64,000 bases of DNA from Escherichia coli (lineage in GTDB: Bacteria > Pseudomonadota > Gammaproteobacteria > Enterobacterales > Enterobacteriaceae). Every line of letters starts with the position of its first letter. The first letter of the stretch is position 1. The translations under genes were made by a program, and so were the position numbers. Below are positions 13,138-15,256 of this stretch, piece by piece. The stretch is taken from assembly GCF_003334335.1 (NCBI RefSeq), contig NZ_QOWQ01000003.1, one strand, 5' to 3'. The notes under the pieces are model-generated. The model made no database searches. It was not told the DNA's origin and saw only the letters and a program-made list of their open reading frames with translations.

Positions 13138-15256
13138 GTTATTCTCTGCATTCAGAAAAAATAAAATCTGGGATTTCAACGGCGGCATCCATCCACCGGA
13201 GATGAAAACCCAGTCCAACGGTACACCCCTGCGCCAGATACCCCTGGCGCAGCGTTTTGTTATTCCACTGAAACAGCATATTGGCGCTGAAGGTGAGTTG
13301 TGCGTTAGCGTCGGCGATAAAGTATTGCGCGGCCAGCCGCTTACCCGTGGTCGCGGCAAAATGCTGCCTGTTCACGCGCCCACCTCGGGTACCGTTACGG
13401 CTATTGCGCCCCACTCTACGGCTCATCCTTCAGCTTTAGCTGAATTAAGCGTGATTATTGATGCCGATGGTGAAGACTGCTGGATCCCGCGCGACGGCTG
13501 GGCCGATTATCGCACTCGCAGTCGCGAAGAGTTAATCGAGCGCATACATCAGTTTGGTGTTGCCGGGCTGGGCGGTGCAGGATTCCCGACAGGCGTTAAA
13601 TTGCAGGGTGGCGGAGATAAGATTGAAACGTTGATTATCAACGCGGCTGAGTGCGAGCCGTACATTACCGCCGATGACCGTTTGATGCAGGATTGCGCGG
13701 CTCAGGTCGTAGAGGGTATTCGCATTCTTGCGCATATTCTGCAGCCACGCGAAATTCTTATCGGCATTGAAGATAACAAACCGCAGGCGATTTCCATGCT
13801 GCGCGCGGTGCTGGCGGACTCTAACGATATTTCTCTGCGGGTGATTCCAACCAAATATCCTTCTGGCGGTGCTAAACAATTAACCTACATTCTGACCGGG
13901 AAGCAGGTTCCACATGGCGGGCGTTCATCCGATATCGGCGTATTAATGCAAAACGTCGGCACTGCTTATGCAGTGAAACGTGCCGTTATTGATGGCGAGC
14001 CGATTACCGAGCGTGTTGTAACCCTGACTGGCGAAGCAATCGCTCGCCCGGGCAACGTCTGGGCACGGCTGGGGACGCCAGTGCGTCATTTATTGAATGA
14101 TGCCGGATTCTGCCCCTCTGCCGATCAAATGGTGATTATGGGTGGCCCGCTAATGGGCTTTACCTTGCCATGGCTGGATGTCCCGGTCGTAAAGATTACC
14201 AACTGTCTGTTGGCTCCCTCTGCCAATGAACTTGGCGAACCACAGGAAGAACAAAGCTGCATCCGGTGTAGCGCCTGTGCTGACGCCTGCCCTGCGGATC
14301 TTTTGCCGCAACAGTTGTACTGGTTCAGCAAAGGTCAGCAACACGATAAAGCTACCACGCATAACATTGCTGATTGCATTGAATGTGGGGCTTGCGCGTG
14401 GGTTTGCCCGAGCAATATTCCCCTGGTGCAATATTTCCGTCAGGAAAAAGCTGAAATTGCGGCTATTCGTCAGGAAGAAAAGCGCGCCGCAGAAGCCAAA
14501 GCGCGTTTCGAAGCGCGCCAGGCTCGTCTGGAGCGCGAAAAAGCGGCTCGCCTTGAACGACATAAGAGCGCAGCCGTTCAACCTGCAGCCAAAGATAAAG
14601 ATGCGATTGCTGCCGCTCTGGCGCGGGTGAAAGAGAAACAGGCCCAGGCTACACAGCCTATTGTGATTAAAGCGGGCGAACGCCCGGATAACAGTGCAAT
14701 TATTGCAGCACGGGAAGCCCGTAAAGCGCAAGCCAGAGCGAAACAGGCAGAACTGCAGCAAACTAACGACGCAGCAACCGTTGCTGATCCACGTAAAACT
14801 GCCGTTGAAGCAGCTATCGCCCGCGCCAAAGCGCGCAAGCTGGAACAGCAACAGGCTAATGCGGAACCAGAAGAACAGGTCGATCCGCGCAAAGCCGCCG
14901 TCGAAGCCGCTATTGCCCGTGCCAAAGCACGCAAGCTGGAACAGCAACAGGCTAATGCCGAGCCAGAACAACAGGTCGATCCGCGCAAAGCCGCCGTCGA
15001 AGCCGCTATTGCCCGAGCCAAAGCGCGCAAACGGGAACAGCAACCGGCTAATGCGGAGCCAGAAGAACAGGTTGATCCGCGCAAAGCTGCCGTCGAAGCG
15101 GCTATTGCACGCGCCAAAGCACGCAAGCTGGAACAGCAACAGGCTAATGCGGTACCAGAAGAACAGGTTGATCCGCGCAAAGCGGCAGTTGCCGCGGCTA
15201 TTGCCCGCGCTCAGGCCAAAAAAGCCGCCCAGCAGAAGGTTGTAAACGAGGACTAA
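13130..15256 (+). CDS. rsxC: Rsx/Rnf complex subunit C, 708 aa, with a C-terminal Ala/Lys/Glu-rich tandem repeat region
   Basis: Track ORF 708 aa with ferredoxin-type Cys motifs ([12 protein letters not shown]; [12 protein letters not shown]) and in-frame repeats; overlaps rsxB by 8 nt. Confidence 0.94.
14786..15245 (+). repeat. rsxC: In-frame 96-bp (32-aa) tandem repeat array inside rsxC, four full copies plus a partial fifth
   Basis: Repeat unit starts GATCC at 14786, 14882, 14978, 15074 and 15170 (exact 96-bp period); encodes [32 protein letters not shown]-type units. Confidence 0.9.

Follow-up and report, generated by a model that had tools for sequence, protein, structure and literature searches.

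The 64,000-nucleotide stretch of Escherichia coli contig NZ_QOWQ01000003.1 (assembly GCF_003334335.1) analyzed here, which we call the window, carries at the 3′ end of the rsxC gene a tandem array of 96-bp units. As a whole, our observations are very probably best explained by an in-frame coding minisatellite located at the same locus as the variable-number tandem repeat (VNTR) marker ms11.

Anatomy of the array and its match to marker ms11

Within rsxC, which encodes subunit C of the Rsx/Rnf ion-translocating oxidoreductase, an earlier note made from the letters of this DNA alone had described a perfect in-frame tandem array of five 32-residue units opening with GATCC, ending at 15245, and had proposed that a tandem-repeat finder be run on it. 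Tandem Repeats Finder indeed returned a single array (14786–15210, period 96, 4.4 copies, 89% matches, 0% indels), and the GATC sites at 14786, 14882, 14978, 15074, and 15170 follow each other at exactly 96 bp, with all five unit starts lying in frame 0 of the 708-aa rsxC open reading frame (ORF). The register and the spacing thus held, but not the perfection nor the fifth 32-residue unit: the four full units differ pairwise at 8–13 of their 96 nt (86.5–91.7% identity) and at 2–3 of their 32 residues, and the fifth, terminal unit is ~60% identical to them and cut down to 28 codons plus the stop. With this terminal unit included, the array runs to the stop codon (15256) rather than to the end given in the note. 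The coordinates of the features discussed in this study are collected in table 1.

Table 1. Features of rsxC, of its 3′ array, and of the sequences overlapping or flanking it in the window.
Feature	Coordinates	Strand	Basis
rsxC coding sequence (708 aa), subunit C of the Rsx/Rnf ion-translocating oxidoreductase	13130..15256	+	ORF list, NCBIfam, Pfam, RefSeq match
Repeat unit 1 (32 aa), chimera of K-12 units 1 and 2	14786..14881	+	unit alignment
Repeat unit 2, identical to K-12 unit 3	14882..14977	+	unit alignment
Repeat unit 3 (variant ...KREQQP...), identical to K-12 unit 4	14978..15073	+	unit alignment
Repeat unit 4 (variant ...NAVPEE...), identical to K-12 unit 5	15074..15169	+	unit alignment
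Terminal unit, divergent, shortened (28 aa), plus stop codon; in every allele examined	15170..15256	+	
MLVA primer ms11-F site (GAAACAGGCCCAGGCTACAC)	14635..14654	+	exact, unique match; primer in Table 1 of PMC8215070
MLVA primer ms11-R site (CTGGCGCTGGTTATGGGTAT), inside the start of rsxD	15285..15304	-	exact, unique match; primer from PMC8215070
Long predicted helix after the ferredoxin domain (RsxC 432-507)	14423..14650	+	AlphaFold2 single-sequence model
Degenerate single copy of the repeat core (RsxC 489-504), upstream of the array	14594..14641	+	sequence reading
Conserved basic helix "PDNS...RKxQAR" (RsxC 519-541), between the degenerate core copy and the array	14684..14752	+	
Antisense shadow ORF, 403 aa	14150..15361	-	ORF list
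Antisense shadow ORF, 200 aa	14578-15180	-	ORF list
Out-of-frame sense shadow ORF, 183 aa	14694-15245	+	ORF list

The identification with ms11, a marker of multiple-locus VNTR analysis (MLVA), follows from the fact that each of its primers has a single match in the window, one on either side of the array, that the marker has the same unit size of 96 bp (PMC8215070, Table 2), and that it is polymorphic in copy number. The primers, attributed to Gorgé et al. 2008 (J Clin Microbiol 46:1026, as cited in PMC8215070), bracket the array with a predicted amplicon of 670 bp in the window, and six alleles of the marker have been reported among 80 E. coli isolates, with alleles 0 and 4.5–7 (PMC8215070). 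The polymorphism is therefore already known, ms11 being in routine use for Shigella/E. coli typing, and the locus is not new. As a polymorphism, the array matters little, having served as an MLVA typing marker since 2008. The link came through the primer match: literature searches combining rsxC, ydgN, or rnfC with VNTR, MLVA, or minisatellite returned Erwinia papers only.

It can be observed in passing that the GATC tetranucleotide opening every unit is the site of Dam methylation and of MutH, the window-wide density being 3.9 GATC per kb. This periodicity arises because the units open with the Asp-Pro codons GAT-CC, of which it is probably a by-product, and we therefore rejected it as an independent signal; the GATC of each unit would nonetheless supply mismatch repair with one entry site per unit.

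Copy number across E. coli genomes

The window allele of 708 aa had been set in the earlier note against 740 aa for RsxC of K-12 MG1655, with the suggestion that copy number may differ between strains and that lengths be compared across E. coli. Both the K-12 length and the suggestion proved right. The K-12 gene measures 2223 bp, that is, 740 aa, exactly one 32-aa unit above the window, and annotated or translated alleles from complete genomes form a ladder stepping by 32 aa, in which repeat number is clearly not identical throughout the species: 580 aa with no full unit in strain 1105 (NZ_CP023388.1), 644 aa with two in AHB18, 676 aa with three in A39 and O104:H4 2011C-3493, 708 aa with four in the window and HUSEC2011, 740 aa with five in K-12 MG1655, 772 aa with six in O157:H7, and 806 aa with seven, two of them of 33 aa, in ST131. 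The 806-aa allele hence corresponds to the 708-aa allele plus three units and 2 aa.

To this ladder can be added the flank-to-flank spans measured, genome by genome, with an artificial query built from nothing but the two unique flanks, since queries with the whole gene or with the array plus its flanks gave no clean lengths, BLAST leaving its pieces within the repeat unjoined. Two sets of ~59 genomes each were taken at even steps down the BLAST ranking of 5,425 complete genomes, and are thus a sample rather than a census. In both, spans differed from that of the window by -96, 0, +96, +192, or +288 bp, plus small additions of 3–6 bp. Expressed in units relative to the window, the first sample comprised one genome at -1, 6 at 0, 41 at +1, 5 at +2, and 6 at +3, and the second 1, 14, 33, 6, and 5 genomes, respectively. 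Pooled over ~118 genomes, five full units are found in ~63%, four (as in the window) in 17%, six in 9%, seven in 9%, and three in 2%. All sampled genomes labelled O157:H7 stood at +2 and all sampled K-12 derivatives at +1, when the annotated ST131 genome stood at +3, as did the sampled genomes of the same flank identity (97.6–97.9%). Copy number is in this respect largely fixed within lineages, at five units in K-12, six in O157:H7, and seven in ST131.

Variation also affects the units themselves. Nine alleles together hold 29 distinct unit types at the DNA level; a Thr-bearing first unit and the terminal unit are present in all nine, and change is concentrated in the interior of the array. 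The ST131 allele, with its seven full units, has two that measure 99 nt and encode an extra Gln (LEQQQQAN), a triplet having been gained in the CAG/CAA run of the unit, and such units account for the offsets of +3 and +6 bp in phylogroup B2-like genomes. Six assemblies of the two samples had spans one base off, which may be due to homopolymer sequencing errors or to real frameshifts; a run of seven C is present in rsxD at 15520–15535, in the 3′ flank of the array.

Could these differences be mere artefacts, arrays having been collapsed or expanded by assemblers? Many RsxC entries in databases are partial and stop where a contig stops, so that breaks in short-read assemblies do occur here; moreover, the two O104:H4 outbreak assemblies stand one unit apart, and the array is fully collapsed in strain 1105. 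However, counts are consistent per lineage in many independent complete genomes (O157:H7 at +2, K-12 derivatives at +1, and ST131 at +3), alleles differ in the order of their variant units and not just in length, and several ms11 amplicon sizes are seen on agarose gels in MLVA studies (PMC8215070), all of which makes an artefactual origin of the polymorphism highly improbable.

The behavior of the array in databases nevertheless deserves attention of its own. Most database proteins matching the tail are short RsxC fragments labelled "partial," from many genera, which suggests that draft assemblies commonly break inside the rsxC repeat. In strain 1105, rsxC bears a RefSeq pseudogene flag (C-terminus missing) because of its length difference alone, yet its ORF is intact, in frame, 580 aa long, and closed by the normal stop; its array may truly contain no full unit, or it may have been collapsed during assembly. 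From a practical perspective, short-read assemblies often break or collapse at the array, annotation pipelines can call short in-frame alleles pseudogenes (PGAP, in strain 1105), and tools scoring the presence or absence of protein variants will count RsxC length variants as different proteins. In this regard, two published signals could reflect the repeat and not a functional change: the non-frameshift rsxC deletion of an olaquindox-resistant ATCC25922 line (PMC7696260), and the selection of RsxC as a feature in a machine-learning study of O157:H7 outcome (PMC12711010).

Junctions and the gain and loss of whole units

The window allele and the K-12 allele are close enough for the junction between them to be read. 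They differ at 1 nt over the 1656 nt upstream of the array, and units 2–5 of the window are identical to K-12 units 3–6. Unit 1 of the window agrees with K-12 unit 1 at the eight sites distinguishing K-12 units 1 and 2 up to position 39, and with K-12 unit 2 at position 88, a pattern that places the exchange point within a 48-nt tract identical between these two K-12 units. The window allele is the K-12 allele minus one unit, with a crossover in that tract. A second pair of alleles has a junction of the same kind. In O104:H4 2011C-3493, unit 2 combines HUSEC2011 units 2 and 3 into a chimera, the 786 nt upstream being identical; this one-unit difference (676 vs. 708 aa) may be real micro-evolution in the outbreak lineage, or assembly collapse. 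In strain 1105, the start of unit 1 is joined straight to the terminal unit, in frame.

From these junctions, rather than from events caught as they happened, we infer that whole units would be gained and lost by in-register misalignment of neighboring units, by way of either replication slippage or unequal sister-strand exchange. As changes of this kind involve whole units in register, the reading frame would always be kept; as the units are only ~90% identical, copy-number events would be rare.

This rarity bears on the idea that the array might be a fast-switching contingency locus, generating phenotypic variation within a clone. A laboratory-evolved line of E. coli ATCC25922 with a non-frameshift deletion in rsxC (PMC7696260), as well as the O104:H4 assemblies one unit apart, could be read in this way. 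However, in contrast to phase-variable repeats that shift a frame or the spacing of a promoter, the units are intragenic and of 96 nt (99 in ST131), a length divisible by three that allows no on/off switching, and every allele examined is in frame. Likewise, the units are not near-identical, with 86–92% identity, and the sampled K-12 derivatives all have one copy number, as do the sampled O157:H7 genomes. A contingency locus is thus very unlikely.

Selection on the encoded peptide and the overlapping reading frames

Among the four full units, the proportion of synonymous differences (pS) is 0.34 and that of nonsynonymous differences (pN) 0.034, so that pN/pS is 0.10, which implies that the peptide was conserved while the DNA drifted. 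The units are old copies maintained by selection rather than the product of a recent expansion.

The same substitutions help to interpret the long ORFs that overlap the array in other frames. One antisense frame contains no stop across the array, and a second antisense frame and the second sense frame contain one each; the ORFs of 403, 200, and 183 aa are therefore long because the repeated unit is nearly or wholly stop-free in these frames, in line with the earlier note, which had blamed the repeats for spurious antisense ORFs. That they are real overlapping genes is next to inconceivable: they do span the array, but it is the repetition of a stop-free unit that makes them long, the great majority of differences between units are silent when read in the rsxC frame, and rsxC is the only gene that RefSeq annotates there. 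We consequently rejected the antisense ORFs as genes, the repeat being stop-free and the substitutions following the sense frame of rsxC.

RsxC and the predicted structure of its tail

The 708-aa ORF is identified as RsxC on account of its NCBIfam score, Pfam domains, and RefSeq annotation. It scores 867.4 bits against the RsxC equivalog NF003454 (cutoff 345) and 597 bits against TIGR01945 (cutoff 246), and Pfam matches PF13375 (RnfC_N) at residues 14–115, PF01512 (Complex1_51K, the NuoF-like domain binding flavin mononucleotide [FMN]) at 139–283, PF10531 (SLBB) at 296–344, and Fer4 families at 373–430 (2x[4Fe-4S]). This order of domains (RnfC_N, NuoF-like FMN domain, SLBB, and 2x[4Fe-4S]) is that of RnfC, and the solved RnfC chains 8ahx_C, 7zc6_C, and 9eri_C can be aligned with the window protein. 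In RefSeq, the matching region of other genomes is annotated rsxC, flanked by rsxB and rsxD.

The array encodes what lies beyond these domains. The tail extends past every Pfam match in RsxC and past all solved RnfC structures, the RnfC of Azotobacter vinelandii (8ahx_C, 496 aa) aligning with RsxC residues 15–498 only. In an AlphaFold2 single-sequence model of residues 431–708, seven helices are predicted: a long one (432–507, i.e., model residues 2–77, with a predicted local distance difference test score >89 over the first 50 residues), a second one (521–550), and five of 20–26 residues, one per unit, each starting from the Pro of the DP pair. The helices of the repeat units are spaced by linkers of 8–12 residues such as AEPEEQVD, with no confident packing (predicted template modeling score 0.27). 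The 18-residue basic core of the E. coli unit has a charge of +4 and the linker a charge of -3. According to this model, each 96-bp unit would encode a helix of ~24 residues with a basic core, followed by a short, proline-containing acidic linker (AEPEEQV), and the units would together make up a cytoplasmic tail that follows the catalytic core of this subunit, which binds reduced nicotinamide adenine dinucleotide (NADH).

As for the genomic surroundings, rsxC lies within the rsxABCDGE operon, the ORFs at 11978, 12559, 15257, and 16319 corresponding to rsxA, rsxB, rsxD, and rsxG of the annotated K-12 region. In the 5′ part of rsxC, a terminator-like hairpin is found at 13229–13252 on the + strand, with 9 pairs, 7 of them G-C, followed by CGTTTTGTTA. 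A weak NusA-dependent "rsxC terminator" has been used in vitro (2026 preprint, PMC13192885), to which this hairpin may or may not correspond.

The repeat core in other bacteria

An exhaustive protein search with one 32-aa unit returned 67 proteins, of which the full-length ones, the ones with a named source, and the ones that we inspected are RnfC/RsxC or fragments thereof, the full-length matches carrying 4–12 matched stretches. A word-indexed search with the tail, by comparison, mostly returned short RsxC fragments and no full-length proteins. From 80 instances of the motif in 15 RnfC/RsxC proteins, a consensus emerges that starts with D-[PD]-[KR] and has near-invariant K4, A9, A10, A12, R13, and A16; instances have a charge of +4 to +7, mostly +4 to +6, and are separated by linkers of 9–52 aa with a charge of -2 to -11, whose sequence is unrelated between genera. 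The core D-P-[KR]...[KR]-K recurs 3–12 times in RnfC/RsxC tails across Gammaproteobacteria, the named sources including Vibrio vulnificus, Erwinia, Pseudoalteromonas, Celerinatantimonas, and Thorsellia, with Pasteurellaceae also represented and fragments from Salmonella, Klebsiella, Dickeya, Proteus, Haemophilus, Mannheimia, and Aeromonas. Clusters at 90% identity mix proteins that are not equally long: one has members of 773, 782, 825, and 1013 aa, and a second has members of 820, 840, 874, and 890 aa, which indicates that copy number varies within other species too.

The part of the tail upstream of the array is shared as well. Degenerate copies of the core such as DAIAAAIARVKAKQ occur at the equivalent place in RnfC of other genera, and the "PDNS" basic helix, too, keeps its relative position in the RnfC proteins of other genera, Vibrio and Pseudoalteromonas among them; the tail therefore also has a conserved, non-repeated part.

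No Pfam family matched the motif in the Pfam search of RsxC, and a profile of the motif run against the PDB retrieved nothing significant, its best match, VASP, having an E-value of 1.8, that is, chance level. In the literature that we searched, the core motif is printed only in the Erwinia typing paper (PMC10587187), and we found nothing on its function.

Possible function of the tail

Considering both the purifying selection on the units and the conservation of the module across Gammaproteobacteria, the helix module probably does something; it is strongly conserved and positively charged, and many Gammaproteobacteria carry it in repeated form at the C-terminal end of the Rnf/Rsx subunit that binds NADH. 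Its most likely role would be that of one of several independent, flexibly linked basic helices that contact the complex electrostatically near its RsxB side, in a number that appears loosely constrained (0–7 in E. coli). On a more speculative note, one may tentatively picture the 18-residue basic helix, repeated 3–12 times in alternation with acidic linkers, as an undescribed functional module of gammaproteobacterial Rnf/Rsx complexes, acting as a multivalent, tethered docking element near RsxB whose valency would be set by the VNTR copy number; this possibility is somewhat doubtful. Its partners could then be an acidic protein (ferredoxin or flavodoxin), SoxR, RsxB/RnfH, or the membrane surface.

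A further step would be to regard copy number itself as adaptive, with lineages tuning their count of basic-helix modules to adjust Rsx function, be it the rate of SoxR reduction or the recruitment of partners. The purifying selection on the peptide, the conservation of the module across orders together with a copy number that varies within several species, and the choice of RsxC as a feature in the O157:H7 machine-learning study (PMC12711010) would all be compatible with such tuning. On the other hand, none of the alleles of 0–7 units has been lost from natural isolates, the distribution of copy number follows phylogeny in the way that neutral inheritance predicts, and no phenotype has been tied to length, so adaptive tuning of the count appears unlikely.

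Several points weigh against our explanation of the array as a whole, namely an in-frame minisatellite whose units would be gained and lost in register and would encode a helical module. Some differences in copy number between assemblies, such as that of the O104:H4 pair, could be assembly errors, and, on the side of the mechanism, slippage and RecA-dependent exchange would be indistinguishable from the junctions alone. With regard to function, the zero-unit allele of strain 1105 exists and the Rnf complexes of Acetobacterium woodii and Clostridium tetanomorphum lack the tail, which is therefore not needed for core electron transfer; besides, the papers that we found contain no experiment showing its role.

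Comparison with known systems

With respect to mechanism, the closest likeness is to the tandem repeats of Lovett and colleagues, in which E. coli repeats of ~100 bp reportedly lose and gain whole units in register by misaligned replication, at a rate that a divergence of a few percent, combined with mismatch repair, is said to lower strongly. The lineage-level stability of the ~90%-identical rsxC units fits this effect of divergence; those repeats were engineered reporters, whereas the rsxC array is a natural locus.

With ms11 of the Shigella/E. coli MLVA panel, the array shares its locus, its 96-bp unit, and the existence of several E. coli alleles, the difference being one of treatment: ms11 is used as an anonymous size marker in PMC8215070, where rsxC, the peptide, and the order of variant units go unmentioned.

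At the protein level, the comparison is with the RnfC of A. vinelandii (8ahx), which also extends past the 2x[4Fe-4S] domain and with which RsxC residues 432–498 align, the first part of the 432–507 helix corresponding to its C-terminal helix. A 2025 review (PMC12174285) describes contacts of this long helix with RnfB and RnfH and calls its function not understood. The A. vinelandii protein ends at 496 aa, unlike that of E. coli, whose repeat modules (residues 553–708) lie further downstream, without a solved counterpart.

Finally, an equivalent VNTR exists in Erwinia amylovora rsxC, a repeat of 40 aa present in 0–5 copies that was put forward in 2023 as a marker for typing (PMC10587187). Both belong to the same gene, occupy the same C-terminal position, are in frame and strain-variable in copy number, and have units starting with the same 18-aa core, which ends in (K/R)K. 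They differ in the length of the unit (40 vs. 32 aa) and in the linker, which is rich in Ala and Pro in E. amylovora (AAQAAPAAADKAAPVQQPAAEQ). The arrays thus share a core and a location, and they appear to have expanded separately in each lineage.

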